Made by a program: the position numbers and the translations under genes | The notes under the pieces: model-generated | Seen by the model: only the letters and a program-made list of their open reading frames with translations | Told to the model about the DNA's origin: nothing | Databases searched by the model: none | Shown: positions 2,529-20,000 of the stretch, piece after piece | Layout of the letters: each line of letters begins with the position of its first letter | Numbering within the stretch: the stretch's first letter is position 1 | DNA from: an uncultured virus (IMG/VR IMGVR_UViG_3300044616_001484) | Taxonomy: Duplodnaviria > Heunggongvirae > Uroviricota > Caudoviricetes | Length of the DNA stretch: 20,000 nt | Virus record (IMG/VR): IMGVR_UViG_3300044616_001484 | Direction: 5' to 3' (one strand)

Positions 2529-2765
2529 TCAGCGCGAACGATTACGAGCAACACGATAATAAGAACGGCCATTGCGAGTCTCACGAACTACGGTGTAGTT
2601 CATATCAAAACGATCAAAAGCCTCACGGAGATCGTGCATGGTAGCACGCATGTTGCTGACTCGGAAACGCTTCCGAGCCTCACCTGCTGTTAGCGTAGAG
2701 CCGCCACGCATGTAATCAAACACTCTTTGAATCTTAGTAGGACGATCAACTGTAGTAATTTCCAT
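2529..2765 (-). CDS. Small basic winged-helix DNA-binding protein
   Basis: 78 aa, Arg-rich; LTAGEARKRFRVSNMRATMHDLRE helix-turn-helix-like segment followed by a beta-hairpin wing; AAAGGA RBS. Confidence 0.65.
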   Translation of the reverse strand: MEITTVDRPTKIQRVFDYMRGGSTLTAGEARKRFRVSNMRATMHDLREAFDRFDMNYTVVRETRNGRSYYRVARNRSR

Positions 2766-2794
2766 ATAAATTTCCTTTCTTATAAGAAGTTGTC

Positions 2795-2830
2795 ATAATA
2801 TATCCCTTATACATCGTATGTCAAGTAATT
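2795..2830 (-). promoter_or_regulatory. Sigma70-type promoter for the wHTH gene
   Basis: Minus strand reads AATTAC-TTGACA (2819-2824), then TATATT (16-nt spacer) or TATTAT (18-nt spacer). Confidence 0.65.
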
Positions 2831-7800: not shown

Positions 7801-7930
7801 ATGAACCAGATGCACCAGAAGCAGCACCAACATCACCATTGAGTGAATATATTCCAGATCTTCCATAATATCTACACGCAACAGCTACATGACGACCAAC
7901 TGGATTACAACAACACGCTTGTTTTGGCAT
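4826..7930 (-). CDS. Large Gly-rich/Cys-rich protein, probably a virion fibre or adhesin
   Basis: 1034 aa; poly-Gly domain in the N-terminal third, Cys-rich remainder; perfect TATAAATA and AAGGTG RBS upstream. Confidence 0.6.
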   Translation of the reverse strand: MPKQACCCNPVGRHVAVACRYYGRSGIYSLNGDVGAASGASGSSGSSGGSTTNIITGIEYGYGGDDGFLGITSGIQKFFGWTAQEPAFGNDQSGYIHRGPVKWVAEIKQFDTTRDVILLSRSGGGSSQYEWDESEPKGGHSALLQSRVKASLALEGFAGIGGNNYIGGFPSLMGEQLEDNSDPTIVGGGAGGGGGRDARGGYGGITYGYRGDGSFGGYGGGKNSAGLAGGPSAFNGGTLYGGSGANNGGGGGGGRYAGGGGDQGSGGGGGASKWPSNQGGSSFDDVNYSEDASDLGPGGVCDPFIYYYPLDTVVYGWHAGLGGGANIVFDLQADQNLNSSTRFLGFGYDYNPFKQGIPGVIAAVWVDKYCPCSEIAEGSTGATGGQVVEVVPFGEQEEESTETSNSSTELPAKMYICLTDEQYQVLENFKDPENEELDVPHPRFTLNGETYIYVGVCVNSYCPSIRLVEGTPTNLAKTDLGGNGAASFNGTYNDCCDVMICSRYCKIPEADCYSCRCNTTCLTDLSKPKYCCENLDEKPDQYWSKSEGWLWWCRKVKKFWYPFGVTPEDTLPATNELSIDGMLVNGPFEKGCLPITATGLCGSTLQAFINSNCFPENPNLNCEEYRGWNSERCTASLPKKYWEGKLVWPISVNADLCADLKDYQRYAFDTSLPVNCDCLPTDIVSCVYVGCNKESKNYSSSFSRCDLIPILGGYFGRKYTGCTTSFNPNGTFIFEVYNNITGFNTRNTPICREVLGMTIRIPRCHPDPNNPQIEDSPKYGIPSVGNAYGAFPSEQGWFELCEKRITGYGTLGDFVSVITNNLQSDIEIIVNEPRLWLSKRPYIRPCDEFEESLPPDLVYRIKITETLDYQILEYYFIPMGYYFQIDAKVLVNQVVNFPKWLGDDIVCNPACQCQTGKSYEVDFERSDGSRYSYFSEPYYLFENSGGELPTLVRGEYQTSFEYGNGPDVGLSVMPDQLKEQICPVNPDSIFGAGIAIRSKASCMKVTIGDFPLCETTQTLEPNICYADFLEITYG

Positions 7931-8709: not shown

Positions 8710-9393
8710 ATGAAATCATTTAAAAACTTCTTAATCGAAATCGCACCACCAGCAGTAGAACAACAAAATGATGATCCATTTGGTGGAAATGAACAAATTA
8801 AAAAATTATATGGTGCAATTGTAGCAGCAGAGCATGAAGGGGCAAAACCAAAAGATCCTTATGCTTTCGATAAAAATTTATATATCCGCACAAAAGCTGG
8901 CGGTGGCAAATCCACAGCATACGGACCAACGCAAATTACAGTAAGTACTGCAAAAGGTTTTATGAAAACTCAACCAAATCTATTCAAAGGAATAGAGGGT
9001 TATTCAAAGCAATATGCAGATCAAGGAAATAAATTTTTAAAGGCTAATGTAAAAGATCCCCAATATGGATTGGGTTGTGTTGGTGATCTGTGTGATGAAA
9101 AGTATCATAAAGATTATCAAAAAATGTCATCTGCTGTAATTCAAGGAAAAGCAAAAGAAAAGAAGCTTGATTTAACCAAGCCTCTTTCCGATGAAGGTTT
9201 AAATACCTTTATCCAATACTGGCGTGGAGCAGATGAAAAAGCCGATCCACGTTATTTTAATCGCTTCAGAGAAGCATTCAAAGGAACTGAAGTTAAAAAG
9301 GCAACTCCTCCTCAACAACCTCAGCAACCCGCTGCAAAAACCACTCAGGTGCCGAAGAAGCCTTCCACTTCGCAAACCGCTCCTTCTCGTTAA
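8710..9393 (+). CDS. Lysozyme/lytic-transglycosylase-like protein with T4 internal-protein-type leader
   Basis: Likely start MKSFKNFLIE at 8710 rather than 8659; AIVAAE (candidate catalytic Glu) and STAYGPTQITVSTA resemble SLT motifs. Confidence 0.55.
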   Translation: MKSFKNFLIEIAPPAVEQQNDDPFGGNEQIKKLYGAIVAAEHEGAKPKDPYAFDKNLYIRTKAGGGKSTAYGPTQITVSTAKGFMKTQPNLFKGIEGYSKQYADQGNKFLKANVKDPQYGLGCVGDLCDEKYHKDYQKMSSAVIQGKAKEKKLDLTKPLSDEGLNTFIQYWRGADEKADPRYFNRFREAFKGTEVKKATPPQQPQQPAAKTTQVPKKPSTSQTAPSR

Positions 9394-9853
9394 TATAATA
9401 TCTACGATAGGCGACTACTGCGTTGCCATCTTTGTATTGATCGGGCATAGCTTGAGCAAACGGAGTAAGCTTACCTTTTTTGATATTTGCTGGAGGATTA
9501 TACAATCCATCCATAAGCATAGATTCCATTGCATGAACTTTGCCATACCTTGCAGTGTACTCTTTGCACAAAGCATATGCATGTTTCCAAAGCCACATGT
9601 AATTTGCACGACTTTCTCTCACCCAAATGGTGCATGGATGATTAATCATAGTTGCCTTGCAAATATCTTTCTTAGTGCAAACACTAGTCTTATATCTACG
9701 CTTACCAGTATCGACTTCAATCACATCACCGTCAAGAACATGATGTGCTGTCGAAAGCAACTGACAAGACTCTAGAATCATTTTGATAACATGCTTGTCA
9801 CACATCATCTGTGCAGAAACTTCAGGCTGCTGGTCCAAAACAAAAATATTCAT
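9293..9853 (-). CDS. Pyrimidine-dimer DNA glycosylase (DenV-related) family protein
   Basis: MNIFVLD...CDKHVIKMILE..QLLSTAH, NHPCTIW, QAMPDQY, AYRRYY motifs; ATGA-coupled to guaC. Confidence 0.8.
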   Translation of the reverse strand: MNIFVLDQQPEVSAQMMCDKHVIKMILESCQLLSTAHHVLDGDVIEVDTGKRRYKTSVCTKKDICKATMINHPCTIWVRESRANYMWLWKHAYALCKEYTARYGKVHAMESMLMDGLYNPPANIKKGKLTPFAQAMPDQYKDGNAVVAYRRYYINEKERFAKWKASSAPEWFLQRVAEVVEEELPF

Positions 9854-10884
9854 ATTTCGTGGTTCTCAAAAATGTTGTTAATAGTGCGATTGACTTTAAT
9901 CAGTTTACCATTCGAATATAGTTCAGGCAAGTTAAAACCACCAACATAAGAGCAAGCCGAGCGCAAACCACCAAAAATTTCTTGAATTGTATTTCGTACA
10001 GATCCGCGATATGGTACTTCAACTGTTCTTCCTTCCGATGCTCTATAATCGGAAAGCCCACCATTGTACTTTTCATTAGCAGTTTTGCTGCTCATGCCGT
10101 AGTGCAACATCCGGAGCTCTCCATGCTCACCGTGTCGTATTTCACCACCACACTCATCGTGACCGGCAAACATCCCTCCAGCCATAACAAAGGCTGAGCC
10201 AGCAACAAATGATTTTGCAAAATCTCCGGGATAAATTATTCCACCATCAGCAACGATCCCAATACCGAATGCTTCTGCGATCTGAGCACACTCTAGCACT
10301 GCTGATAGCTGAGGGTATCCGACTCCCGCAACTCGCCGGGTCAGGCACATCGACCCCGACCCGATTCCCACTTTTACGAGATCTACGCCAACCTGCGACA
10401 ATTCCTCTACCCCCTCTGGGGTCACGACATTCCCTGCAATCAAAATAGACTTCGGCCATTTTTCTCTAACCTTTCTTGTAAAATTATGAAACTCGGTCAT
10501 GTAGCCGTTTGCTACATCCACACAAACAAAAGTAGGATCGGCAATTATTGCCGTATCCACAAACAATTTACTATCGGAATCCATTCCAAGAGTAAGTGAA
10601 ACATATTTTTCTTTGTCGGGATAACTTGTTGCGAAGCTTGTATAATAATTTCCACCTTTGCGCAAGCAAGTTACAATCTTATACTCTGAGAGCACAAGAG
10701 CCATGTCATGGGTTCCAACTGTAGACATATTAGCTGCCATAACTGGAACACCTTTCCATGTTGTACCACATTTAAAAGTTTTTTCAACTTCAAGTGACAC
10801 TTCCTTTCTAGATTTTACGTTAGACTTTTGAGGTACTATGAGTACGTCAGAATAATCAAGCTTTGGCTCGTAGTTCACAATCAT
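9850..10884 (-). CDS. guaC: GMP reductase
   Basis: KLDYSDVLIVP, AANM, DVANGY, AGNVVT, KVGIGSGSMC, GVGYPQLSAV, ADGG, YGMSS, YRASEGRTV, GGLRSACSYVG. The start at 10884 matches known GuaC N-termini (alternative start 10890). Confidence 0.92.
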   Translation of the reverse strand: MIVNYEPKLDYSDVLIVPQKSNVKSRKEVSLEVEKTFKCGTTWKGVPVMAANMSTVGTHDMALVLSEYKIVTCLRKGGNYYTSFATSYPDKEKYVSLTLGMDSDSKLFVDTAIIADPTFVCVDVANGYMTEFHNFTRKVREKWPKSILIAGNVVTPEGVEELSQVGVDLVKVGIGSGSMCLTRRVAGVGYPQLSAVLECAQIAEAFGIGIVADGGIIYPGDFAKSFVAGSAFVMAGGMFAGHDECGGEIRHGEHGELRMLHYGMSSKTANEKYNGGLSDYRASEGRTVEVPYRGSVRNTIQEIFGGLRSACSYVGGFNLPELYSNGKLIKVNRTINNIFENHEI

Positions 10885-10891
10885 GTCCATA

Positions 10892-10919
10892 AAGATAACA
10901 TCCTATCAAGAATTGTCAA
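10892..10919 (-). promoter_or_regulatory. Sigma70-type promoter, probably giving leaderless guaC mRNA
   Basis: TTGACA-N16-TATCTT with TGn extension, then 7 nt to the ATG at 10884; no SD sequence. Confidence 0.55.
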
Positions 10920-11102
10920 TTATTTTTTATTGTGGTTTTCAATCTTCTCAATCGCATCTCTTAAACTCAACATTTTTTGCGCGAGTTCTTTAGACGTAAG
11001 TTTGTCCCGAAGATACTCTTCATATTTCGAAAGTATAATTTTCGCTTCTCGGAATAAGACAGCATGAAGATGATCAGTGCGTTTGGAATCATGGTCACTC
11101 AT
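10920..11102 (-). CDS. Small hypothetical protein
   Basis: 60-aa helical ORF filling the gap; ATAAATA on - at 11110-11116. Confidence 0.6.
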   Translation of the reverse strand: MSDHDSKRTDHLHAVLFREAKIILSKYEEYLRDKLTSKELAQKMLSLRDAIEKIENHNKK

Positions 11103-11112
11103 CTATATCTAT

Positions 11113-11688
11113 TTATTCAAGACCAATTGTGTCGTCTCGGATAAATTTAATGGTCTTAGCCATATAGAAAGATCTCCATCCTTGTTTATTTAGATCCCAT
11201 ATTCCTATTCTGTCGCCGGGAAGAGGAGAAAAGAAACTTACTCTGGTTCTCAATTCTTTTGTTGGAATGGAGGTTTTATCCAATGTTCCAGTTAAACGTT
11301 GGACATTGTTATCTTTATCAACAAATATTACAGTACATACACCGGACAAAGCTTCCATTATAAGTTGATCTGGTGAAATATGATCGGACTTATAAGAAAC
11401 TTCATCAGTAACTACAGTAACATCCATCATATAATGTATTGTTGGGTCAAATACGCTTAACGATGTATTTAATTTTTTCTGTGACAAAAAATTGTCATAC
11501 GAACCATAAACATTTGATATGTATTGCTTATACAATAAATCTTGTTTTTCTAGACTTTCGTATGTTGATTTTTGCAATTCAGATCCTTGATATTTGCCAC
11601 CATACTTTTTTTCAAAAGTAGAATCTTCAAGACCTTTGGCAATTTCTGCACTAAGTGCATCATTGAAATTTTTTTGTTCTTCTGCCAT
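11113..11688 (-). CDS. Protein with C-terminal WYL_2 (Sm-like SH3 beta-barrel) domain
   Basis: GVCTVIFVDKDNNVQRLTGTL...IWDLNKQGWRSF motif. Confidence 0.7.
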   Translation of the reverse strand: MAEEQKNFNDALSAEIAKGLEDSTFEKKYGGKYQGSELQKSTYESLEKQDLLYKQYISNVYGSYDNFLSQKKLNTSLSVFDPTIHYMMDVTVVTDEVSYKSDHISPDQLIMEALSGVCTVIFVDKDNNVQRLTGTLDKTSIPTKELRTRVSFFSPLPGDRIGIWDLNKQGWRSFYMAKTIKFIRDDTIGLE

Positions 11689-12174: not shown

Positions 12175-13230
12175 ATGAATTACCTGACACAATACTATAA
12201 GAATATATGTGAAAACCTTCAAGCAAAAATTGAAATTATTGAAGCAAATCTTCGTTCCGCATCCGAAATTCAACAATTAGGAAATGAAGAATACCAAAAA
12301 GCTTTGGAAAAGAAAAAGATGGAACTTGGCCGAAGTCTGACTATGGATGAAATTTCTGACGTTGCCAGTGCAACCATAACCCCATACACCGCAAGAGCCT
12401 TAAAGAGAGAGGCATTGATTGCAAAAGCAACAGAACAACTTCCATCAGTAGCACAAACAGGCGATGTTGAAACTGCAACACAATTTGCAGACGTGATGGG
12501 GGATATCTCAAAGAGAAATATTTCTGGAAAGGTTGCCGGATTTGCAAATTTAGGGCCAGAGACTGCAAAAATACTTCAATCAGGTGTTGAAGATGTTGCC
12601 CAAGTGAGCAGAGGTCTTCGGTCCCGTGGCATGCAAACTTCAGTCCCTGCAGACATTGCCTCCTTGAGAAAATTTATTATGATGGGCAAAGGAAAGTACG
12701 AAGCTCCATACGCCCAACCAACAGAAACTACACCAGACTTTTTTGATGGTCCGGATATGGATACAAAGGGATCTGCAATGGAGGTTGGTGCGGCACAAAG
12801 AAGAAATCAATATAAAGGAAGTATAAAAGAAAGTATTCTTCAACAAAAAATATCTTTACTTGAAGAAAGAATAAAAAAGAAACCACAACATCTTCCTTTT
12901 GAAATTTTAGGTATAGACGCACCACTGGACTATGGTAAAAAAAATTTTGATCCAAGTATGATAGGAATTTATGGAAGACATGTTAGACCAGATGGAAGCA
13001 GAGGACCGGAAGTTAATATACCAGTACATGCCTTTGCCGACATGCACCATAATGATGTTATTGATCATGCCGAAGATTATATGAGAGGAAAAGGAAAAAC
13101 ATCTCCTGACAATCCTCTTTTTAAAGCTTTGACCGATGTTGGTGACAGTCCCATCACATTCAAAATCGATTCCAGCAAAATTGAATCAATTGAATCATAC
13201 AATAAAAGAGTAGAAGAAGAAGGACTATAA
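12175..13230 (+). CDS. MNYLT-leader family protein 1 (351 aa)
   Basis: Starts MNYLTQYYKNICENLQAKIEIIEA; late promoter directly upstream. Confidence 0.75.
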   Translation: MNYLTQYYKNICENLQAKIEIIEANLRSASEIQQLGNEEYQKALEKKKMELGRSLTMDEISDVASATITPYTARALKREALIAKATEQLPSVAQTGDVETATQFADVMGDISKRNISGKVAGFANLGPETAKILQSGVEDVAQVSRGLRSRGMQTSVPADIASLRKFIMMGKGKYEAPYAQPTETTPDFFDGPDMDTKGSAMEVGAAQRRNQYKGSIKESILQQKISLLEERIKKKPQHLPFEILGIDAPLDYGKKNFDPSMIGIYGRHVRPDGSRGPEVNIPVHAFADMHHNDVIDHAEDYMRGKGKTSPDNPLFKALTDVGDSPITFKIDSSKIESIESYNKRVEEEGL

Positions 13231-13607
13231 TGAACTACCTAACAAAATATTATAAAAATCTTTGTGAACAACTTCAACAAAAAATTAATATCCTTGAAGC
13301 CAATCTTGATACACCAGATGATATTCGTAGATATGAAAGAAATCCAAGATCAGAAAGAGCATTTAAGAGAGAAGATACTATAGAAGCCATTCGTGGTCTT
13401 TTAAACGATTCAAGTCCCAGAGTTCATAAAGATAAGGTTAAACGTGTTCTAAACGATGTTCTGGATCTAGATGGACCCCGTGCTTCACGGGAAGATTTAC
13501 AACATGTCATGGCTCATATCAGAGGAGATTATTATCTTGGTTCAGAAGACCCACAAGAACAAAAATTAGACGCAGCCAGACAAAGAACATTAGAAAGATA
13601 CACATAA
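13230..13607 (+). CDS. MNYLT-leader family protein 2 (125 aa)
   Basis: Starts MNYLTKYYKNLCEQLQQKINILEA; TAATG coupling to the previous gene. Confidence 0.75.
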   Translation: MNYLTKYYKNLCEQLQQKINILEANLDTPDDIRRYERNPRSERAFKREDTIEAIRGLLNDSSPRVHKDKVKRVLNDVLDLDGPRASREDLQHVMAHIRGDYYLGSEDPQEQKLDAARQRTLERYT

Positions 13608-13611
13608 TTTT

Positions 13612-14010
13612 ATGAACTACCTAACAAACTATTACAAAAATTTATCAGAGCAACTTCAAGATAGAGTCAACCACCTTCATAAACTTTTAAATGAAGAATC
13701 ACAACCTCATCATGAAAATCCGCACTTTCTTGATATAGTACAACACAATGCTAAAATGCATGCATTGGTCGGTGGTGGTGGTGAAGTGACCAAAGAACAT
13801 ATTGCTCAAGCACAAAAAATTATATCGGCAGCAGAGAAAGCAGGACACGTTGGTTTGACTGCAGATCGGTACGGTCAAGATGCCGGAAAAATTGGTTGGG
13901 TAGGAATGACTCCAACCGACTACTTTTCAGCAAATCCAGAAGAACCTCGTGAGATATTCACTCCTATAACACCTAGAACAACAGCGAGTATTTGGAATTC
14001 TTTAAAATAA
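13612..14010 (+). CDS. MNYLT-leader family protein 3 (132 aa)
   Basis: Starts MNYLTNYYKNLSEQLQDRVNHLHKLLNEE. Confidence 0.75.
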   Translation: MNYLTNYYKNLSEQLQDRVNHLHKLLNEESQPHHENPHFLDIVQHNAKMHALVGGGGEVTKEHIAQAQKIISAAEKAGHVGLTADRYGQDAGKIGWVGMTPTDYFSANPEEPREIFTPITPRTTASIWNSLK

Positions 14011-14073
14011 CAGGAAAACCTTTAAGCAACATCTAGAAAAAAGAATTAAAAATTTAAAAATTCAGATAAATAT

Positions 14074-14104
14074 GGGAGCCCACAAAAGGCTCCCTTATTT
14101 TTTT
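14074..14104 (+). terminator. Intrinsic terminator
   Basis: GGGAGCC-cacaaaa-GGCTCCC followed by TTATTTTTTT. Confidence 0.8.
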
Positions 14105-14137
14105 CGCTTCGCAGGTTTTTTGTGCTAGACTGACTAC

Positions 14138-14509
14138 ATGCCACTCTCATTATTCGAAGAAGACAACATTACACAGACTCCCCAAAAAACTTCAACCAAA
14201 ACGAAGAGAACCCGCCGAGTCAATGATGTAAAGAAAGTCTACAAGGCTATCCGGAGGCAGAGTAAGTGCATCGATTGTGGATGGAAGAGAATTCCAGCAG
14301 TATTAGAATTTCACCATCTGGAAGAGGGTGAGCGAGAACCGACTCGGACTCGTAGAAGCCGCACAGTCCAGCCACATACTCATAAAACCGTCGAAAAGAT
14401 GGAAGAGGAATTGACAAAGGGCGATTTTCTGTGCCCGACCTGCCACAAGTGCCGTCACTACAACGAGGAGCTGGATATCTTGGATACTGCGAATAAAAAT
14501 TTGAGATAA
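14138..14509 (+). CDS. HNH-like zinc-finger endonuclease
   Basis: CIDCG...LEFHH...EEL.K...LCPTCHKCRH motifs; TGc-TAGACT-N6-ATG upstream (14123-14140). Confidence 0.7.
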   Translation: MPLSLFEEDNITQTPQKTSTKTKRTRRVNDVKKVYKAIRRQSKCIDCGWKRIPAVLEFHHLEEGEREPTRTRRSRTVQPHTHKTVEKMEEELTKGDFLCPTCHKCRHYNEELDILDTANKNLR

Positions 14510-14520
14510 TAAATAATCTC

Positions 14521-15060
14521 ATGGACTATCTAACAAACTACTACAAAAATCTTTGCGAGCAACTTCAAGAAAAATTGAATATCTTGGAAGGTCAAAGAGA
14601 ATATTACCTTAAACATCTTGATGGCAGACGTGACAGAAGTAATGAATCAAATCCATTTGATTCTTTTTTTAAAAAATCAAAATTAAAACCTAAAATTAAT
14701 GGCACTATAGATACCGAGACCGACGATGATATCTTAGCAATGAGACAGACCGCAGCCGATCAAGGTGGCATTCCACAGGACATGGTGAACGAACCAATCC
14801 GCAGAACCAAACAACAACCAGACGGAAGATTAATCTACGGTGAAAGCAAGCCAAAGCCAAAAGCCAAACCAGATATTGGTTTACTAGTCAAACCAAAAAT
14901 GCCTCTTCCAGCTCCAAAAGAGGAGACAATGATTCCAACATCCTTGTATGGATTAAAAAAGGAACGGGATTTTAACAATACTCCCATGGGACTAATTCCA
15001 CAGACTCCAGAACAAAGAAGAAGATATGGAATGACACCATACGACAATACAAGATCTTAA
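14521..15060 (+). CDS. MNYLT-leader family protein 4 (179 aa)
   Basis: Starts MDYLTNYYKNLCEQLQEKLNILEG; ATAAATA at 14509-14515. Confidence 0.75.
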   Translation: MDYLTNYYKNLCEQLQEKLNILEGQREYYLKHLDGRRDRSNESNPFDSFFKKSKLKPKINGTIDTETDDDILAMRQTAADQGGIPQDMVNEPIRRTKQQPDGRLIYGESKPKPKAKPDIGLLVKPKMPLPAPKEETMIPTSLYGLKKERDFNNTPMGLIPQTPEQRRRYGMTPYDNTRS

Positions 15061-15084
15061 AAAATTCTAATAATTAAAATAAAC

Positions 15085-15113
15085 AAGAGGAGGCTCATTA
15101 AAAGCCTCCTCTT
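15085..15113. terminator. Probable bidirectional terminator
   Basis: AAGAGGAGGCT-cattaaa-AGCCTCCTCTT between convergent genes. Confidence 0.75.
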
Positions 15114-15147
15114 ATTGTTTATAGCCACTGTGTGGCGTTTCAGTGAA

Positions 15148-15270
15148 TCAACCGGCGCATTTGACCAATCCGACAATAGCTACCAACAGAACGATTCCTG
15201 TGATAACCCATTCAACCGGAGTAAAGTTTTGCAAAGTGTCTTTAATTTTTGTAACGATGTTTGTTAGCAT
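15148..15270 (-). CDS. 40-aa single-pass membrane protein (below the ORF-track cutoff)
   Basis: MLTNIVTKIKDTLQNFTPVEWVITGIVLLVAIVGLVKCAG; AAAGGA RBS and CTAAATA upstream. Confidence 0.65.
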   Translation of the reverse strand: MLTNIVTKIKDTLQNFTPVEWVITGIVLLVAIVGLVKCAG

Positions 15271-15342
15271 AAAAATTTTCCTTTAAACTATTTAGACCAT
15301 TTTACGCCCGGAAATTTTTAAGGGCATCCCATGTATTTCAAA

Positions 15343-15540
15343 AAGGGGACCCATTTTCTAGGAATCCTTGGACGGGACCACGGGGGGTACTAAAAGGGGA
15401 CCCAGAATATTCAAAGTTATTTGAGAAAATTTAAGAATTATTTGAGGGTGGGGTGGGCTAGCCCCGCCGGGTCCCACACACCCCGAAGGGGACCCAAATC
15501 ACTGTATGGACACCGATGCAAGGCCCTACCCCCCCCCCCC
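15343..15540. repeat. Non-coding junction with AAGGGGACCCA x3, TTATTTGAG x2 and a C12 tract
   Basis: AAGGGGACCCA at 15343, 15394 and 15486; inverted GGGTCCC at 15469; TTATTTGAG at 15417 and 15438; C12 at 15529-15540. Confidence 0.8.
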
Positions 15541-15576
15541 TAATAACTCAGAGGCCCCCGCAAGGGGGCCTCTGAG
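15541..15576 (-). terminator. Terminator hairpin for the leftward early genes
   Basis: CTCAGAGGCCCCC-gcaa-GGGGGCCTCTGAG 13-bp stem, followed by TTATTA on the minus strand. Confidence 0.7.
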
Positions 15577-15586
15577 GGGCTGGGGG

Positions 15587-15808
15587 TTAGCCCTCCGCAT
15601 GTTGCTCCCAGTAGGGGTCGTCGTCGCCTTCGTAGCCCATGGCGCGCTCATGCGCGTCCCATGCCATGTCTGCGCGCACATCGTCCACGCACATGACGCA
15701 CAGCGTACCGTGCTCGGTAGCGCGCACCGCGTCGTCCACGTGGTCCGCGCCGCAGACGCAGCAGCAGGGGCGAGAGGTTTCAGCCGGGTTGTTCTGAGTG
15801 GTGCTCAT
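15587..15808 (-). CDS. Small acidic zinc-ribbon-like protein (73 aa), leaderless
   Basis: Start MSTTQNN at 15808, defined by TATACT-N6-ATG; CCVC...CVMC motifs; acidic tail. Confidence 0.7.
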   Translation of the reverse strand: MSTTQNNPAETSRPCCCVCGADHVDDAVRATEHGTLCVMCVDDVRADMAWDAHERAMGYEGDDDPYWEQHAEG

Positions 15809-15814
15809 GCGTGT

Positions 15815-15848
15815 AGTATACCACAATCCCCCATCGATGTAAGTAAAC
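15815..15848 (-). promoter_or_regulatory. Early promoter P1
   Basis: GTTTA-CTTACA-N17-TATACT-N6-ATG on the minus strand. Confidence 0.75.
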
Positions 15849-15896
15849 ACCACCCAAAATTTTTGGGTGGTGTGGCTAAGGGTTAGGCGGTGGGCT

Positions 15897-16175
15897 TCAC
15901 ATCTCGCCCCATCCCGCACTCGCTAGCCAGTCGTTGTCGGCGTCCCAGTCCTCGCGGCTCATCCGGCTAGCCGCGTCGATGAACGCATCGTTGTCCGCCT
16001 CGCGGCTCGCCTCCTCAAGGGAGGGCTCCGCGTGTTCCCCTCCCCTGCGCGCCTCGCGCTCGCGCTCGCGCTCCTCCTCGCACATCGGGCACATCGAGTC
16101 CGTGTAGGCGTACTCGGGGCGGTGGCAGTCGCAGGGGAAGTGTTCGTGTTCGTGGTTGTGGGTGGTGTTGCACAT
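15897..16175 (-). CDS. Small acidic Cys/His-rich protein (92 aa), leaderless
   Basis: CDC...CPMC motifs, Glu/Asp-rich; TAGAAT-N6-ATG. Confidence 0.7.
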   Translation of the reverse strand: MCNTTHNHEHEHFPCDCHRPEYAYTDSMCPMCEEEREREREARRGGEHAEPSLEEASREADNDAFIDAASRMSREDWDADNDWLASAGWGEM

Positions 16176-16181
16176 GGCGGC

Positions 16182-16295
16182 ATTCTACCATACTCCCGCC
16201 TCCCCGGCAGCAATTGGGCACGGAAGTCTGGTGCGAAACTTCCTGAAATTTTTCCGTGCCCAATTGCTGCCGGGGAGGCATCGGCGTGGTACAAT
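16182..16295. promoter_or_regulatory. Back-to-back promoters P2 (-) and P3 (+) built on a perfect 28-bp inverted repeat
   Basis: Arms at 16198-16225 and 16252-16279. Each arm gives CAATTG-CTGCCG-N17 to TAGAAT (16182-16187, -) or TACAAT (16290-16295, +). Confidence 0.85.
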
Positions 16296-16301
16296 ACGCC
16301 C

Positions 16302-16676
16302 ATGACCACCACCAACTACACCGCGCCCGTCACCCTCATCCGCCTCCGTCACCCCGACCACCCGACCATCGTTGAGTTCGCCTTCACGCCCCGCTACATG
16401 AAGTGGACGATGCTGAAGTACAACCCCGGCAAGGGGCACACGGCATCGGACGCATGGCTACGCTACTGCGAGGATGACATGGTCAAGCCCTCGCGGTTCG
16501 ACAGCGTCAGCCACGGGGCGACCGACCTGTACTACGCCGACATCGAACGCATCGTCGGCCACCTCGCCCTGAACGGGTGGACCGTTGCGGAGAGCCGGAA
16601 GTACACCGGGCCGACCGGGTACTACGAGTGCAACGCTGCGAACGCAGCGGAGGCCGAAGACCTCGTCCTGTTCTGA
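16302..16676 (+). CDS. Hypothetical early protein (124 aa), leaderless
   Basis: Start MTTTNYT at 16302; GC-rich third codon positions. Confidence 0.75.
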   Translation: MTTTNYTAPVTLIRLRHPDHPTIVEFAFTPRYMKWTMLKYNPGKGHTASDAWLRYCEDDMVKPSRFDSVSHGATDLYYADIERIVGHLALNGWTVAESRKYTGPTGYYECNAANAAEAEDLVLF

Positions 16677-16684
16677 ACCCCACG

Positions 16685-16740
16685 GGGGGAGGGAAAATCT
16701 TTCCCTCCCCCTTGACACCTCGCACCACCTACGGTACAAT
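16685..16740 (+). promoter_or_regulatory. Stem-loop plus early promoter P4
   Basis: GGGGGAGGGAAA-atc-TTTCCCTCCCCC directly abuts TTGACA-N17-TACAAT-N6-ATG. Confidence 0.85.
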
Positions 16741-16746
16741 ACCGCC

Positions 16747-17034
16747 ATGAACCGCACCACCATCGCTGACCTCGTCCTCTCCGTCCGCCACCTGAACTCC
16801 GCTATGGGATTCTCCGATGACGCTGCCGCCGCCATCGGCGTGAACTCCGTCCCCGGCTCCTTCGTCCTGCAGGGAGCCTACGGAGGCTGGCAACTGCAGC
16901 GCATCCACCCATCCGGGGGCGTGACCTCCGTGACCTCGGGCTACCGCAGCAAGCGCGAACTGTGGGAACTGGTGAACGCGATCCGCTACGGCGTACTGGA
17001 GGGGACGGTACGCGTGACCGCGCCAACGATCTAA
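16747..17034 (+). CDS. Hypothetical early protein (95 aa), leaderless
   Basis: Start MNRTTIADL at 16747; contains a GAYGGWQL segment. Confidence 0.75.
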   Translation: MNRTTIADLVLSVRHLNSAMGFSDDAAAAIGVNSVPGSFVLQGAYGGWQLQRIHPSGGVTSVTSGYRSKRELWELVNAIRYGVLEGTVRVTAPTI

Positions 17035-17205
17035 CGAGGTGGTGCTCGTTTCAACCGAAGAGGATTCGTCCCTGCCCCGATTCGTTCGGGGCTAGGTTGT
17101 TTATAGGGGGGACTACTATCCGGCAGCAAAGCTGCCGGATTCCGAGCCTGATAGTAGCCCCCCCCCGGACAGCCCATAATATTATTTCTAATATTCGCGC
17201 CGCCA

Positions 17206-17238
17206 TTTACTGACGCGCCCGCCCCCGTCTGGTACAAT
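17206..17238 (+). promoter_or_regulatory. Early promoter P5
   Basis: TTTA-CTGACG-N17-TACAAT-N6-ATG. Confidence 0.8.
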
Positions 17239-17244
17239 GTACGC

Positions 17245-17805
17245 ATGAGCACCACCGCCTACCGTTACCTCACCGTCCGCACCCGCGCCTCCGAATCCTT
17301 CATCGGGCTCCTCGCGCAGGCTACGCTCTTCGACCTCCACGCCGCCGAGCGTTGGTACGACGAGGCGCAGTCGTTCGCCAACACGCTGCGCCCGTCCACC
17401 GGATGGAACATGGAGGTGGCGGCTAGCGTTGTCTCCGCGTTCTCGCCCCGTGTCACGTGGGCGCACAACAAGGCGAAGGCGGCGCAGTACGCGCAGGGGA
17501 TCACGCCCAAGGGTCTACGCTCCCATGTGGTCGCGGCGGATCGCTGCGTGTCGGAAGGCTTCAACGGTCTGCGCGGCCCCAAGACCAACGCATTCGCCCG
17601 TGCCATCGCCGGGGATCCGAACGCGGTCGTGGTCGATGTGTGGATGTGCCGCGCCGCAGGTCTGTGCAAGGACGCGCCGAACACGACCGAGTACCGCGCC
17701 ATCGCTGACGCCATCCGCGCCATCGCGGGTACGCCGACCGTGAACATGGCACCCGCCACGCTTCAGGCTCTGCTGTGGATCATCGTCCGGGGGAAGGCGG
17801 AATAA
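17245..17805 (+). CDS. HhH-glycosylase-like fold protein (DUF7178-type), leaderless
   Basis: WY..A...SAFSPRVTW..N...GPKTNAF...VVVDVWMCRAA...PATLQALLW pattern. Confidence 0.65.
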   Translation: MSTTAYRYLTVRTRASESFIGLLAQATLFDLHAAERWYDEAQSFANTLRPSTGWNMEVAASVVSAFSPRVTWAHNKAKAAQYAQGITPKGLRSHVVAADRCVSEGFNGLRGPKTNAFARAIAGDPNAVVVDVWMCRAAGLCKDAPNTTEYRAIADAIRAIAGTPTVNMAPATLQALLWIIVRGKAE

Positions 17806-17813
17806 TTCTTCCG

Positions 17814-17851
17814 ACCCAATTACTGACTTTCGCACCTCTAACGAGTACAAT
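17814..17851 (+). promoter_or_regulatory. Early promoter P6
   Basis: ACCCAATTA-CTGACT-N17-TACAAT-N6-ATG. Confidence 0.8.
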
Positions 17852-17857
17852 ACCGCC

Positions 17858-18145
17858 ATGACCACTACCACCACCATCGACCGCACCCAGCCCGTCCTCA
17901 CCGCCTCGCTCATCTCCCCGACCGGGGAGCGCATCGACATCCATGAGATCCCGGCCTACGGCCAATGCGTCCTCGTTCGCTACGACCCGACCCTCAACGA
18001 GACTGCTAGCGAGGCGTGGCTCCGTTCATCGGTCGCCGTGCAAGCAGGACTGCGCGTCTGCGGCAACTACAAGTACTTCCGAACAAGCGAAGCCTTCCAC
18101 CTTATCGGTCGCCTCGTGGTGGAGGAAGGGTGGGCGCGAGCATGA
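17858..18145 (+). CDS. Hypothetical early protein (95 aa), leaderless
   Basis: MTTTTTID start directly after P6. Confidence 0.75.
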   Translation: MTTTTTIDRTQPVLTASLISPTGERIDIHEIPAYGQCVLVRYDPTLNETASEAWLRSSVAVQAGLRVCGNYKYFRTSEAFHLIGRLVVEEGWARA

Positions 18146-18396
18146 CCACCGCCCTCCCCAAGATCACCCGGCGCACGACCCGCGTAGAGTTGTCCGCCCG
18201 TGAATTGCTCCTCATCGATGCCGCTATGTTCGACGGACTAGTGCGGCTCCTCAAGGACTCCAAGTCGTTCGACATCACCGACCCCGAGGACGACACTTGG
18301 AGCATGGAGGCGAAGACCGATGCGGACACCATCCGCAGCGTACAGCACAAGATTGGTTTCGCCCTGAAGCAGATCGAACTGGAGTCCAAGCAATGA
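18142..18396 (+). CDS. Hypothetical protein (84 aa)
   Basis: ATGA coupling at 18142-18145; start MTTALPK. Confidence 0.7.
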   Translation: MTTALPKITRRTTRVELSARELLLIDAAMFDGLVRLLKDSKSFDITDPEDDTWSMEAKTDADTIRSVQHKIGFALKQIELESKQ

Positions 18397-18533
18397 ACCA
18401 CCGTCCCGCCAAGTTCGTCCATGACGCTTTCCGCGAAGGTATCCGGCTCCGGCCCAAGACATGGGGCAAGAAGAGCCGAGACCCCCGGAAGGCGCGGAGG
18501 GAGGGGAAGAGGGAAGTAGCCAGCGAGGGCTGA
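18393..18533 (+). CDS. Small basic protein (46 aa)
   Basis: ATGA coupling at 18393-18396; MNHRPAKFVHDAFREGIRLRPKTWGKKSRDPRKARREGKREVASEG; terminator follows. Confidence 0.6.
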   Translation: MNHRPAKFVHDAFREGIRLRPKTWGKKSRDPRKARREGKREVASEG

Positions 18534-18539
18534 GCTACT

Positions 18540-18572
18540 ATCAGGCAGGTCCTAGGACCTGCCTGATTTTTT
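18540..18572 (+). terminator. Palindromic terminator
   Basis: Perfect 28-nt palindrome ATCAGGCAGGTCCTAGGACCTGCCTGAT running into a T-tract. Confidence 0.75.
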
Positions 18573-18618
18573 ATTGGACGGCGCGTGATAGTAGTCACAA
18601 TCCCCCCAAATAATTTGA

Positions 18619-18656
18619 ACCCAATTACTGACGGCAGACAGGATGTGTGGTACAAT
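18619..18656 (+). promoter_or_regulatory. Early promoter P7
   Basis: ACCCAATTA-CTGACG-N17-TACAAT-N6-ATG. Confidence 0.8.
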
Positions 18657-18662
18657 CCGCGC

Positions 18663-18938
18663 ATGAACAGCACCACCAACAACACCGTGACCGATACCTC
18701 CGGCGGCATCATGCTTGACACCCCCGAGCAGATCTGCGCCTACCGTGAACTGATGATCTACAACGGTCTGAAGTTCGAACTCCGCACCGCTACCCGTGGC
18801 ATCCCCATGCGCCTGACCCGTGGCGTCTCCTGCTACGCCCTCGCCAAGAAGGAGTACGGTCTGAAGGGCAACCGCCTCAAGGTTCTCACCGCCCTGAAGG
18901 AACTCCTTGAGGCGAAGTACGGAGTCACGTTGACCTGA
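18663..18938 (+). CDS. Hypothetical early protein (91 aa), leaderless
   Basis: Start MNSTTNNT at 18663. Confidence 0.75.
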   Translation: MNSTTNNTVTDTSGGIMLDTPEQICAYRELMIYNGLKFELRTATRGIPMRLTRGVSCYALAKKEYGLKGNRLKVLTALKELLEAKYGVTLT

Positions 18939-18946
18939 CCCCCCGG

Positions 18947-18986
18947 AAGGGGGAGGGGTTGAGAGAAATCTCCCCCTCCCCTTTTT
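18947..18986 (+). terminator. Intrinsic terminator
   Basis: GGGGAGGGG...CCCCTCCCC stem followed by TTTTT. Confidence 0.7.
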
Positions 18987-19006
18987 ACGAATAAAACTGT
19001 TTGCGT

Positions 19007-19040
19007 AATTACTGACGCACGCACCCCGACCTGATACAAT
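19007..19040 (+). promoter_or_regulatory. Early promoter P8
   Basis: AATTA-CTGACG-N17-TACAAT-N6-ATG. Confidence 0.8.
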
Positions 19041-19046
19041 ACCACC

Positions 19047-19436
19047 ATGAAGAACACCACCAAGCCCGTCCGCCTCGCCAAGATCGATGACCTCGTTGTT
19101 TCCCTCGTCCTGACCGCCAACAACGCGCCGGAGTTCAAGGACAACCCCGCCGAGATCAACGCGGCCCTTGCCCTGTGCGAGATCACCGTCTCCCTGCCGT
19201 TCGGATGGTTCACGGATGCCGAGAAGACCCTCGTCTACCTCATCGTGACGGAACTGGGTCTGAACTGGGAAGAGTTCGTGGACAGCGTCCGTGACGGATC
19301 TGTGTCCTACTACGCCAAGGCATCGGACACCTCCCTCCGTGATACGGGCATCTCCGTTCTGCCGCTGCAGGACATCGTGAAGGAGTGCCTGCGCCTACAC
19401 TTGGCCCAGTTTGGCAAGGTCAACTTTCCGATCTAA
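19047..19436 (+). CDS. Hypothetical early protein (129 aa), leaderless
   Basis: ORF begins 6 nt after TACAAT. Confidence 0.75.
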   Translation: MKNTTKPVRLAKIDDLVVSLVLTANNAPEFKDNPAEINAALALCEITVSLPFGWFTDAEKTLVYLIVTELGLNWEEFVDSVRDGSVSYYAKASDTSLRDTGISVLPLQDIVKECLRLHLAQFGKVNFPI

Positions 19437-19453
19437 CATGGTGGTGCATGTAG

Positions 19454-19537
19454 CCTCCCGGCCCCACTGTGGGGCCGGGAGGAAGTTTAGAATAAATCTG
19501 CACACCCATTTGCTTTCACCCGAACACAAGGCACAAT
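19454..19537 (+). promoter_or_regulatory. Palindrome plus early promoter P9
   Basis: CCTCCCGGCCCCAC-t-GTGGGGCCGGGAGG; TTGCTT-N16-CACAAT-N6-ATG. Confidence 0.65.
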
Positions 19538-19543
19538 ACCATC

Positions 19544-19846
19544 ATGAACAGCACTACCGAACTTCCGATGTCCACGATTCTTCGCGTTGCCCTCTCCAAC
19601 AACGACACTCTGTTCGTGTCGTTCAGAAAGAAGGACGGCACAAAGACTTCGCGTGAGATCACGGCTGACCCCGTGTTCATCAAGCAACTGGGAGGCAACC
19701 TCCCGACTGGTACTCGTCACACCACCGAAGGGTACATCTGCGCCTTCGACATTCTCAAGAAGGACTGGATCCTGATTGGTGAGGATAAGATTGACGGCAT
19801 CGCAGCATACTCCCGCAAGACGGAGAAGATGCTGAACATGAACTAA
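19544..19846 (+). CDS. WYL_2-like SH3 beta-barrel protein, leaderless
   Basis: VSFRKKDGT..R.IT...AFDILKKDW motif. Confidence 0.65.
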   Translation: MNSTTELPMSTILRVALSNNDTLFVSFRKKDGTKTSREITADPVFIKQLGGNLPTGTRHTTEGYICAFDILKKDWILIGEDKIDGIAAYSRKTEKMLNMN

Positions 19847-19856
19847 AAAATACGTA

Positions 19857-19978
19857 GTCCGGGTTTCTGCAGTAAACGCGGACGGTCTTATGGTGAACGT
19901 TACGCCATAAGGTGCAGGAGTGGACGATCTCCTGCAGACCTCTGACCCGTTCCTCTTTAGGGCGGGTCACGTTCTTTT
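19857..19978 (+). ncRNA. Candidate structured RNA (four tandem hairpins)
   Basis: Stems at 19857-19883, 19887-19911, 19913-19936 and 19943-19969, with G-U pairs on the + strand; T-rich tail. Confidence 0.4.
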
Positions 19979-20000
19979 GAGCTACTATCAGAAATTCCTC

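Follow-up and report, generated by a model that had tools for sequence, protein, structure and literature searches.

Introduction

Host-takeover modules are carried in fixed terminal repeats in some phages, as in the first-step-transfer DNA of T5 and the terminal redundancy of SPO1. Codon usage that depends on the time of expression was reportedly described in T4 by Cowe and Sharp in 1991, and low-GC T4-like cyanophages with tRNAs for A/U-rich codons are said to have been treated by Limor-Waisberg in 2011 and Enav in 2012. The subject of the present work is a block of small genes rich in guanine plus cytosine (GC), called the island below, which begins near position 15,550 in 20,000 nt of DNA from an uncultured virus (IMG/VR record IMGVR_UViG_3300044616_001484); this whole stretch is referred to as the window.

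The hyperplastic regions of T4-type phages are described as containing elements named PeSL, at whose promoters and stem-loops genes are gained, lost and replaced (PMC4122927, PMC2839356), and the published stem-loops differ among phage pairs (PMC4122927). Codon usage can differ between the early and the late genes of a phage (PMC5683454). A low-GC T4-like phage can be blocked in a high-GC host when tRNAs for A/U-rich codons are scarce and its genes are not translated, as determined by experiment for Syn9 in Synechococcus WH5701 (PMC11726456).

Positions 15,550-20,000 of the window were read as the start of an early-gene island matched to the codons of the host, in a lake-water T4-like myovirus of which the rest has about 36-38% GC, and the probability of this reading was put at roughly 0.6. 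Selection on translation appears to be the main force that holds the contrast between the island and the remainder of the genome.

Results

An abrupt step in composition within one phage genome

The abrupt switch from an AT-rich to a GC-rich compartment, which had been claimed in an earlier note made from the letters of the window, was borne out by sliding-window analysis. When segments of 500 nt were used, GC was 0.278-0.490 left of 15,250 and 0.516-0.680 right of 15,500. With segments of 100 nt it went from 0.29-0.34 at 15,201-15,350 to 0.65-0.70 at 15,451-15,650, and the rise was confined to about 15,300-15,550 (~250 bp). The GC content of third codon positions (GC3) was 0.26 in the 20 genes on the left (4,703 codons) versus 0.84 in the 10 genes on the right (1,069 codons), and intergenic GC was 0.35 on the left versus 0.56 on the right.

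To find related DNA, the DUF7178 protein of the right side was used, and 20 IMG/VR loci (L001-L020) were obtained, two of which (L018 and L019) share one profile and could represent repeated sampling of a single phage. In 17 of the 20, an AT-rich flank (about 25-45% GC) stood beside a GC-rich block (55-68%). Of the others, L005 and L014 lie wholly inside the GC-rich block, the 126-kb contig of L005 being AT-rich elsewhere, and L020 belongs to an unrelated phage that is GC-rich throughout and has terminase and portal genes of its own. By local blastn, the window flank at 9,300-11,500 (the GMP reductase and DenV region) was matched by 11 of the 20 loci at 70-80% nucleotide identity, and the island genes of the relatives matched the window at 72-93%; therefore, both sides have diverged together. 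The two-sided synteny in these 11 loci upheld the claim that both compartments belong to one phage genome. A megablast search of both halves of the window against 50,697 phage records gave no match.

A stretch of 1.8 kb around the junction was recovered (at least half of the sampled words) from 24 lake-water metagenome runs under 24 studies, and the contigs of four runs other than the possible source were compared with the window. The run of C residues at the boundary (C12 in the window) was crossed by single contigs of the runs X2 (14,488-15,582) and X5 (15,125-15,574). A contig of the run X3 (record 10) ended in a longer C-run, and the next contigs began at 15,553 with a 30-base overlap, as expected of a branch in the assembly graph; the branch arises at the boundary because a variant that lacks the first island cassette (joint 15,582 to 15,884) coexists. 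The earlier note had also raised the question of whether the C12 junction is spanned, and it is, since the contigs of X2 and X5 cross it and related contigs do join both compartments.

An assembly chimera, in which an AT-rich phage and a GC-rich genome would have been joined at the C-run, could draw on the homopolymer at the junction and on assembled contigs that stop there, such as record 10 of X3. It is contradicted by the juxtaposition with synteny on both sides in 11 independent contigs, by the step in 17 of the 20 loci, by the crossing contigs and by the island-type promoter features on the AT-rich side, and we give it practically no chance. The candidate was rejected on the conserved step, the shared synteny, the crossing contigs and the islands in long relatives.

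In all four runs, single island contigs had 2.1-3.2 times the k-mer depth of flank contigs (window 12500-20000), contig k-mer depth being no copy number. The excess could reflect cassettes shared by co-occurring strains, a GC bias of the libraries, or a repeat.

Promoter geometry and translation start

Sites resembling sigma-70 promoters were enriched at 14,000-20,000 (12 versus 2.7 ± 1.6 in shuffled sequences). Eight units of the form TA[CGT]A[AC]T-N6-ATG head open reading frames (ORFs) of 73-186 aa between 15,587 and 19,436; each such unit, or cassette, thus has its own promoter, and the promoter family was recovered as a direct repeat of seven copies plus two copies on the opposite strand. 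Upstream elements of the AATTACTGAC type were present in four units, with CTGAC[GT] exactly 17 nt before the -10 box. Allowing at most one mismatch, the AATTACTGAC-type word occurred five times versus 1.7 expected, and four of the five occurrences lie in the island. Over five islands, the spacing from the -10 box to the ATG was exactly 6 nt in 47 promoter-ORF units versus 7 units at other spacings of 2-11 nt, and no peak at 6 nt was found in the rest (125 kb) of the long relative G001. The proteins of the promoter-headed units begin M-[NTS]-T-T-T.

Since the -10 box lies 6 nt before the ATG, transcription would be expected to begin at or next to the A of the start codon, and the island genes are predicted to be leaderless. 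None of the eight promoter-headed units is predicted to have a leader, versus a Shine-Dalgarno-like motif at -8 to -14 in 8 of the 20 genes on the left, which agrees with the change in the mode of translation initiation that had been described before. The companion claim, that the promoter type changes from TAAATA to sigma-70 at the same place, stood for its right-hand half: the sigma-70-like sites are enriched there, but TAAATA on the left is at chance level (27 observed versus 30 expected from base composition; 0 versus 0.5 in the island). Several TAAATA words do precede start codons by 11-28 nt, as at 4826-7930 (-) and 12175-13230 (+).

Island-type promoter features were also seen on the AT-rich side, at both places that the earlier note had named. 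The TAGACT-N6-ATG unit before the HNH endonuclease gene is present (Table 1); among three matches to the island promoter-ATG pattern in the left 15 kb, it is the only one that heads a real ORF. The word AATTACTTGACA was found at 2,819-2,830 on the minus strand. It lies upstream of an ORF of 78 aa, which by eye is of intermediate composition in the middle of the AT-rich compartment, and the stretch 2529-2830 (-) is possibly a stray early-type unit outside the island.

Codon partition and tRNA genes

As claimed before, third codon positions switch at the boundary, and the two sides use nearly exclusive codon sets. AAA accounted for 233 of 335 Lys codons on the left and 0 of 44 on the right, AGA for 108 of 188 and 1 of 70 Arg codons, ATA for 103 of 299 and 0 of 50 Ile codons, and CCA for 133 of 238 and 2 of 42 Pro codons; TTA was counted 104 times on the left and 0 times on the right. 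In all five islands seen whole (those of the long relatives G001-G004, and L014), a tRNA array of Lys-UUU, Leu-CAA, Arg-UCU and Ile-UAU was found, which reads AAA, UUG, AGA and AUA. Within a few kb past the island follow Pro-UGG, Glu-UUC and Gln-UUG, reading CCA, GAA and CAA, with Gly-UCC, Tyr and Asn at a greater distance. Each of the four long relatives has 10-11 tRNA genes, of which 7 carry U at tRNA position 34 (U34), and the codons frequent in the core (AAA, AGA, ATA, CCA, GAA, CAA and GGA) are each matched by a phage tRNA (Lys-UUU, Arg-UCU, Ile-UAU, Pro-UGG, Glu-UUC, Gln-UUG and Gly-UCC) in four of four. The window itself contains no tRNA gene. A permuted gene resembling transfer-messenger RNA was reported by ARAGORN beside tRNA-Tyr in all four long relatives (G001 101244-101643), with differing tag peptides.

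The four-fold degenerate sites of island genes, taken on the coding strand, had frequencies of 0.46-0.55 for C, 0.25-0.33 for G, 0.10-0.18 for T and 0.05-0.08 for A, and in G001 the bias was the same on both DNA strands (n = 989 and 257 sites). The main codon signal is thus that the messages avoid codons ending in A. A regional mutational bias, arising from a recombination hot spot, GC-biased gene conversion or a local repair bias, would fit the frequent recombination shown by the repeated promoter and terminator elements and by cassette indels, as well as the raised intergenic GC. A strand-symmetric process such as biased gene conversion would, however, not produce the avoidance of A in the coding sense: G001 is asymmetric on both strands (C 0.49 versus G 0.27-0.33; A 0.07-0.08 versus T 0.10-0.16). 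Moreover, GC at the first and second codon positions (GC1 and GC2) of the CobS gene is unchanged, and avoidance falls on the codons that the phage tRNAs read. This explanation was judged improbable.

Escape from silencing would act on the DNA rather than on the message. In a GC-rich host, proteins of the Lsr2/H-NS type would coat incoming AT-rich DNA and leave only the GC-rich block open to the host RNA polymerase, with codon matching as a by-product or second benefit. The Lsr2-like proteins of actinobacteria silence DNA that is AT-rich or of phage origin (PMC7002338, PMC5137423). The actinophage relatives of DUF7178 point the same way, and intergenic GC of 0.48-0.61 in islands versus 0.35 in the flank is what a requirement at the DNA level predicts. 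Such a requirement also predicts strand-symmetric G+C, whereas the observed bias follows the coding sense (C above G, A lowest) and fits the phage tRNA set; we regard silencing escape as unlikely to be the main cause.

Recoded genes and cassette turnover

Orthologues from several relatives were compared, synonymous divergence (dS) being calculated by the Nei-Gojobori method. In the island, GC3 was 0.71-0.87 at a median dS of 0.66 for DUF7178 (n = 20), 0.76-0.87 at 0.96 for the cassette 8 gene (n = 12) and 0.81-0.89 at 0.59 for the cassette 2 gene (n = 14). In the flank, it was 0.31-0.47 at a median dS of 1.22 for GMP reductase (n = 9) and 0.29-0.49 at 2.28 for DenV (n = 7; 9 of 21 pairs saturated). 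The contrast is of long standing and has been preserved, unlike a recent import that drifts towards the composition of the genome.

At the far end of the island in relatives, a CobS-type AAA+ ATPase and a protein of 746 aa lie behind island-type promoters. Their best matches (45-54% identity for CobS, 27-31% for the 'peptidase') are in T4-like cyanophages and Pelagibacter myophages, where the two genes are adjacent and stand between gp46/47 and the clamp and clamp-loader genes. The pair (G001 L030 9424-13252; also L051 and L052) has moved into the island with its order inverted, CobS being first. In G001-G004, CobS and peptidase have GC1 of 0.52-0.55, GC2 of 0.36-0.40 and GC3 of 0.77-0.87; in the phages HTVC008M and Syn30 the values are 0.37-0.54, 0.33-0.37 and 0.19-0.36, and the long ORFs of G001-G004 have a median GC3 of 0.22-0.25. 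The two genes thus appear to have been recoded in place by an almost purely synonymous shift.

Variation of the cassettes was seen directly in the natural populations. A joint of 15,582 to 15,884 (cassette 1 missing) occurred in three of the four runs, and one of 18,594 to 19,024 (cassette 7 missing) in two. One run each gave the joint 17,098 to 18,651, in which whole cassettes are missing, and the joint 17,102 to 17,231, which removes an inverted-repeat element of 59 nt. The breakpoints of the whole-cassette deletions fall in inter-cassette DNA. Compared with L016, the cassette 8 protein is 93% and DUF7178 67% identical, which indicates mosaicism.

Import without local selection would make the island a landing pad for cassettes swapped in from GC-rich phages or hosts, always recent and foreign. 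The varying cassette content of the relatives, the coexisting single-cassette deletions and the unequal identities to L016 speak for it, as do the occurrence of DUF7178 in an unrelated GC-rich phage and in phages of Mycobacterium and Rhodococcus and the raised GC1 and GC2 of the small genes. It does not account for CobS and peptidase, which are T4-lineage genes with GC1 and GC2 as in their cultured relatives and only GC3 shifted, nor for orthologues that hold a GC3 of 0.71-0.89 through a median dS of 0.6-1.0. Furthermore, all cassettes belong to one promoter family with fixed geometry, and five of five islands contain the tRNA array of the phage itself. As the whole explanation, import was considered quite doubtful; the island is apparently a mixture of genes traded with GC-rich phages and genes of the T4 lineage recoded in situ.

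Position of the island in the genome

In four long relatives (92-137 kb, overall GC 0.365-0.385), exactly one block of ~11-12 kb with 50-64% GC was found in each (Table 1). The window holds the left boundary of such an island and its first 4.5 kb (15,550-20,000), and the island continues past the end of the window. Other patches of G001 that are moderately GC-rich sit in giant ORFs (960 and 2,467 aa), next to which an ORF of 636 aa strongly matches tail-fibre and collagen-like sequences; the patches are distinct from the island.

The earlier note had suggested that the GC-rich segment might be injected first or form a terminal repeat. As a physical genome end in the manner of T5 or SPO1, it would have a composition suited to a time alone in the cell. 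In accordance with this, 13 of the 20 related contigs end within the GC-rich block, one contig of 126 kb begins and ends in it, and the island, unlike the rest of the genome, is strongly depleted in AGCT and ACGT. For AGCT, 1 site was observed versus 23 expected in the G001 island (L030 1000-13300) and 3 versus 8.5 in the right part of the window (15550-20000); for ACGT, the counts were 5 versus 41 and 6 versus 19.3. GATC was not depleted (66 versus 72.6 and 19 versus 20.7), and neither were GCGC and CCGG in the island; in the rest of the genome, the ratio of observed to expected AGCT and ACGT was about 0.75. The depletion could be due to restriction avoidance, avoidance at the RNA level, or mimicry of the word usage of the host.

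The idea of a genome end was not sustained, since the island is internal in five related contigs (L006, L007, L013, L016 and L017) and the contig ends are scattered over 1.5 to 9 kb from its left edge with no single site. IMG/VR flags no end repeats in five long relatives, and T4-type terminase genes are present; T4-type phages package by headful and have no fixed ends. Variants with cassette indels explain breaks in assembly, and the contig ends were attributed to such breaks at polymorphic cassettes. A physical end at the island is therefore very improbable.

Identity of the phage and its host

The window is without a core structural gene, and its assignment to the T4-like phages rests on the two-sided synteny with relatives. 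The gp23 capsid family (PF07068) was detected in four of five long relatives (E about 1e-135); identity to cultured phages did not exceed 56%, and T4-like cyanophages gave the best matches. When 120 ORFs of the 137-kb relative G001 were annotated against PHROGs, matches were obtained to a gp55-type late sigma factor, a gp33-type late co-activator, RegA and clamp-loader subunits, and also to gp46/47, UvsW/X/Y, gp32, gp43, gp41, gp61, gp21/22/23 and both terminase subunits (gp17/gp16-type). The T4 core-set identifiers were phrog_234, 254, 168/225, 224, 262, 19, 47, 97, 231, 2 and 445; the sliding clamp gp45 was not among the matches listed. These results point to a true but distinct T4-like lineage.

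CheckV rated the 137 kb as 76% complete. The 126-kb contig of G003 (L039 1-2500, L044-L045) begins and ends in GC-rich island sequence and may hold the whole genome minus part of the island, in which case the genome would be smaller than the ~180 kb implied by the CheckV figure.

Among cultured phages, the relatives of DUF7178 (29-37% identity) came almost all from Mycobacterium (48 records) or Rhodococcus (5), with a single record from a Tunturiibacter phage. Because of these relatives and of the promoter geometry, which is typical of Actinobacteria though also of Deinococcus, a GC-rich actinobacterium is suggested as the host. Neither psbA nor psbD was found in the five long relatives, which are incomplete contigs. 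L020 (terminase phrog_38, portal phrog_104, DNA methyltransferase) has a DUF7178 gene 51-53% identical to that of the island, which was taken as evidence of a gene pool probably shared with GC-rich phages. Another contig, L053, contained no island-type units.

The boundary zone, the cassettes and the flanking genes

The coordinates of the features are listed in Table 1. The transition zone is a non-coding stretch of 315 nt with AAAAGGGGACCCA repeats, the C12 run and a hairpin of 13 bp. Runs of 8-9 C or G residues occur at the equivalent boundary in L001, L010, L012 and L013. Among 16 relatives examined, four (L001, L004 with six copies, L007 and L013) have boxes of the GGGGACCC type clustered at the boundary, all in one orientation, and the other 12 lack the box, which may be a strain-specific protein-binding site. 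The hairpin at the left edge of the island proper is a probable terminator of the leftward island genes, and the start region of the small ORF that precedes the zone is conserved in L001 and L007. When the 329 nt of the boundary were folded as RNA, z was -2.1, dominated by the terminator hairpin and by pairing of a G-run with C-rich sequence.

Two leftward and seven rightward units meet at the inverted repeat at 16,157-16,320. The proteins of cassettes 1 and 2 are rich in Cys and His (CCCVC...CVMC; HNHEHEH..CDCH..CPMC), the second with an acidic tail, and resemble small proteins that bind zinc; neither fell in a Pfam or PHROG family. The further ORFs of cassette 6 overlap (84 aa, 18,142-18,396; 46 aa, 18,393-18,533). 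Inter-cassette hairpins were found at 15,547-15,576, 15,847-15,873, 17,074-17,092, 17,106-17,164, 18,540-18,567 (the terminator of cassette 6) and 19,454-19,482, and, by reading of the sequence, at ~16,684-16,711 and 18,940-18,985. In the window, no Rfam family was detected at gathering thresholds.

Table 1. Positions of the features in the window and of the islands in four long relatives (GC3, GC content of third codon positions).
Feature	Position	Strand	Remarks
HNH endonuclease gene	14138..14509	+	GC3 0.50 (intermediate); TAGACT-N6-ATG at 14,126
Last large AT-rich gene, 179 aa	14521..15060	+	GC3 0.31; fourth in the MNYLT/MDYLT paralogue run
Bidirectional terminator-like hairpin	15085..15113	.	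Closes the AT-rich gene block; inverted-repeat search
ORF of 40 aa, hydrophobic core	15148..15270	-	Last gene of AT-rich style; TAAATA and AAGGAAA upstream
Three AAAAGGGGACCCA copies	15341..15496	+	At 15,341, 15,392 and 15,484; direct-repeat search; non-coding transition zone
C12 homopolymer	15529..15540	+	Length variable: C14 in run X2, longer in X3
Hairpin, perfect 13-bp stem and GCAA loop	15547..15576	.	Left edge of the island proper
Cassette 1, Cys-rich protein of 73 aa	15587..15808	-	GC3 0.81; TATACT-N6-ATG, -10 box 15,815-15,820
Cassette 2, Cys/His-rich acidic protein of 92 aa	15897..16175	-	GC3 0.88; TAGAAT-N6-ATG, -10 box 16,182-16,187
Inverted repeat of 69 nt (78% complementary)	16157..16320	.	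Back-to-back divergent promoter pair; inverted-repeat search
Cassette 3, 124 aa	16302..16676	+	GC3 0.90; TGGTACAAT-N6-ATG; G/C-rich hairpin ~16,684-16,711
Cassette 4, 95 aa	16747..17034	+	GC3 0.84; TTGACA-17-TACAAT (11/12 consensus positions), N6-ATG
Cassette 5, DUF7178/phrog_3842, 186 aa	17245..17805	+	GC3 0.86; CTGACG-17-TACAAT, N6-ATG
Cassette 6, small operon with lead gene of 95 aa	17858..18533	+	AATTACTGAC-N17-TACAAT-N6-ATG
Cassette 7, 91 aa	18663..18938	+	GC3 0.84; island promoter-ATG unit
Cassette 8, 129 aa	19047..19436	+	GC3 0.85; hairpin 19,454-19,482
Cassette 9, 100 aa	19544..19846	+	GC3 0.73; weak phrog_1086 hit; CACAAT variant of the -10 box, 19,532-19,537
Island of G001	81-93 kb		Of the 137-kb contig
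Island of G002	25-36 kb
Island of G003	116 kb to contig end, and first 2.5 kb
Island of G004	16-27 kb

On the AT-rich side, four genes in a row at 12175-15060 (351, 125, 132 and 179 aa) start with MNYLT or MDYLT. Their 5' segment of ~90 nt recurs in relatives, and window 13,598-13,697 matches three sites of L012. The genes gave no Pfam or PHROG match and form a paralogous family with a common N-terminal module; a pattern search with the 351-aa protein of the left side gave one weak locus only. The gene for a protein of 1,034 aa, 4826-7930 (-), contains a patch at ~6,750-7,500 with a GC of 0.47 and a GC skew down to -0.41. Given this patch, a repetitive domain of biased composition, such as that of a fibre, is probable; no Pfam, PHROG or phage tblastn match was found for the protein. 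The earlier note had also linked the two compartments by WYL_2-like genes on both sides. Both proteins do match the phrog_1086 profile (E 1e-8 and 1e-4), but they are not similar to each other (BLASTP E = 34), and the link is weak.

Discussion

On entry, the host RNA polymerase would read the sigma-70/SigA-like promoters of the island, as the promoter type and the T4 paradigm suggest. The leaderless messages, nearly devoid of A-ending codons, would be translated with the tRNAs of a host that is GC-rich and probably actinobacterial, while the island tRNA array would be made at the same time and the U34 tRNAs just beyond the island would add further readers. The AT-rich middle and late genes would then become efficiently translatable and would be transcribed with the gp55/gp33-type late factors. 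The earlier picture of a host-mimicking, first-expressed segment that runs on host RNA polymerase and tRNAs is the reading with the best support: host-type promoters are present and the codons of the phage tRNAs are avoided, whereas its timing is deduced indirectly. A bolder version was held only tentatively, in which the codon sets act as a timer or lock, the core genes not being efficiently translatable in a GC-rich host until the U34 tRNAs encoded in and beside the island accumulate, and in which the GC-rich early DNA, poor in AGCT and ACGT, would alone be open to polymerase and shielded from silencing or restriction directed at AT-rich DNA.

Several points weigh against an early, host-matched island under selection on translation. 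Both the early timing and the leaderless 5' ends are drawn from promoter geometry and the T4 paradigm. Three minor-strand gene sets (39, 56 and 87 four-fold sites) were noisier than those of G001, and two of them (G002, n = 39; G004, n = 87), which are small and may include spurious ORFs, had G above C. Island genes have smaller dS values than flank genes, as would be expected under codon selection but also under a reduced mutation rate or more recent exchange. GC1 and GC2 of the small cassette genes are 0.59 and 0.46, versus 0.47 and 0.39 on the left, and DUF7178 also occurs in the unrelated GC-rich phage L020; therefore, part of the composition of the island may have been imported rather than selected in place. 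Codon selection by itself does not account for the high GC of the intergenic DNA of the islands (0.48-0.61), to which hairpins and promoters may contribute. As for the host, WhiB was found in none of the five long relatives, which are incomplete contigs, and the capsid, CobS and peptidase genes are closest to those of cyanophages and pelagiphages, so that a GC-rich picocyanobacterial host is possible. A scan of bacterial genomes with the DUF7178 alignment gave only two contigs of metagenome-assembled genomes from unrelated phyla (Phycisphaerales and Flavobacteriales), which are probably mis-binned phage DNA and no pointer to the host.

Phage genomes are usually taken as compositionally uniform, and host prediction, binning and chimera filters depend on that. 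Here, a clade of abundant lake phages keeps two nearly exclusive codon sets over the long term, with boundary, promoters and tRNA genes aligned. Such phages offer a natural experiment for the question of whether viral genes are timed by the choice of codons and the supply of tRNAs, which has so far been approached mostly through statistics of small differences. If the timer exists, the passage from early to middle and late protein synthesis would be controlled by the codon set together with the early tRNA array. Lineage-typical genes such as CobS and peptidase can, by this account, be synonymously recoded according to their place in the expression programme. We know of no T4-like isolate of actinobacteria, and if the host is actinobacterial, these would be the first T4-like phages assigned to that phylum. 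In practice, contigs break at the island (13 of 20), and tools based on composition risk calling chimeras or assigning two hosts.

Comparison with known systems

The early modules of T5 and SPO1 resemble the island in size (~10-12 kb) and in their many small genes, each with a strong host-type early promoter and serving the first minutes of infection. They differ in lying in fixed terminal repeats, whereas this island is internal in five contigs of a T4-like phage, and to our knowledge no compositional dimorphism has been described for T5 or SPO1.

As in codon usage by time of expression, the synonymous codons of the presumed early and late genes differ and are linked to host and phage tRNA supply. 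The published cases are statistical shifts within one overall composition, whereas here two nearly exclusive codon sets occupy separate compartments, divided by a step of ~250 bp and conserved in the clade. In open-access full text, no paper was found that describes codon sets of this degree and physical separation, and the Far-T4 paper makes no mention of GC content, islands or actinobacteria.

The low-GC cyanophages are similar in that a T4-like phage is more AT-rich than its presumed host and carries tRNAs that fit its own frequent codons. They differ in that the available part of the paper on Syn9 describes no GC-rich early block matched to host codons (PMC11726456). In HTVC008M and Syn30, the CobS/peptidase pair has the ordinary low GC3 of the genome.

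The closest likeness in architecture is to the PeSL cassettes, in which small variable genes, each with an early promoter and a stem-loop terminator, stand between conserved core modules. A sigma-70-type promoter for each unit, paired hairpins and indel breakpoints at the elements were all found here. This likeness rests on architecture and not on the published PeSL consensus sequences (RB49/phi1, T4/PST and KVP40/nt-1). In the present case, the promoter lies 6 nt from the ATG and the genes are predicted to be leaderless, the block is opposite to the core in composition (GC3 0.84 versus 0.26), and the island also carries tRNA genes and the recoded CobS and peptidase genes. With these differences, the island may best be read as a variant of the PeSL cassettes.

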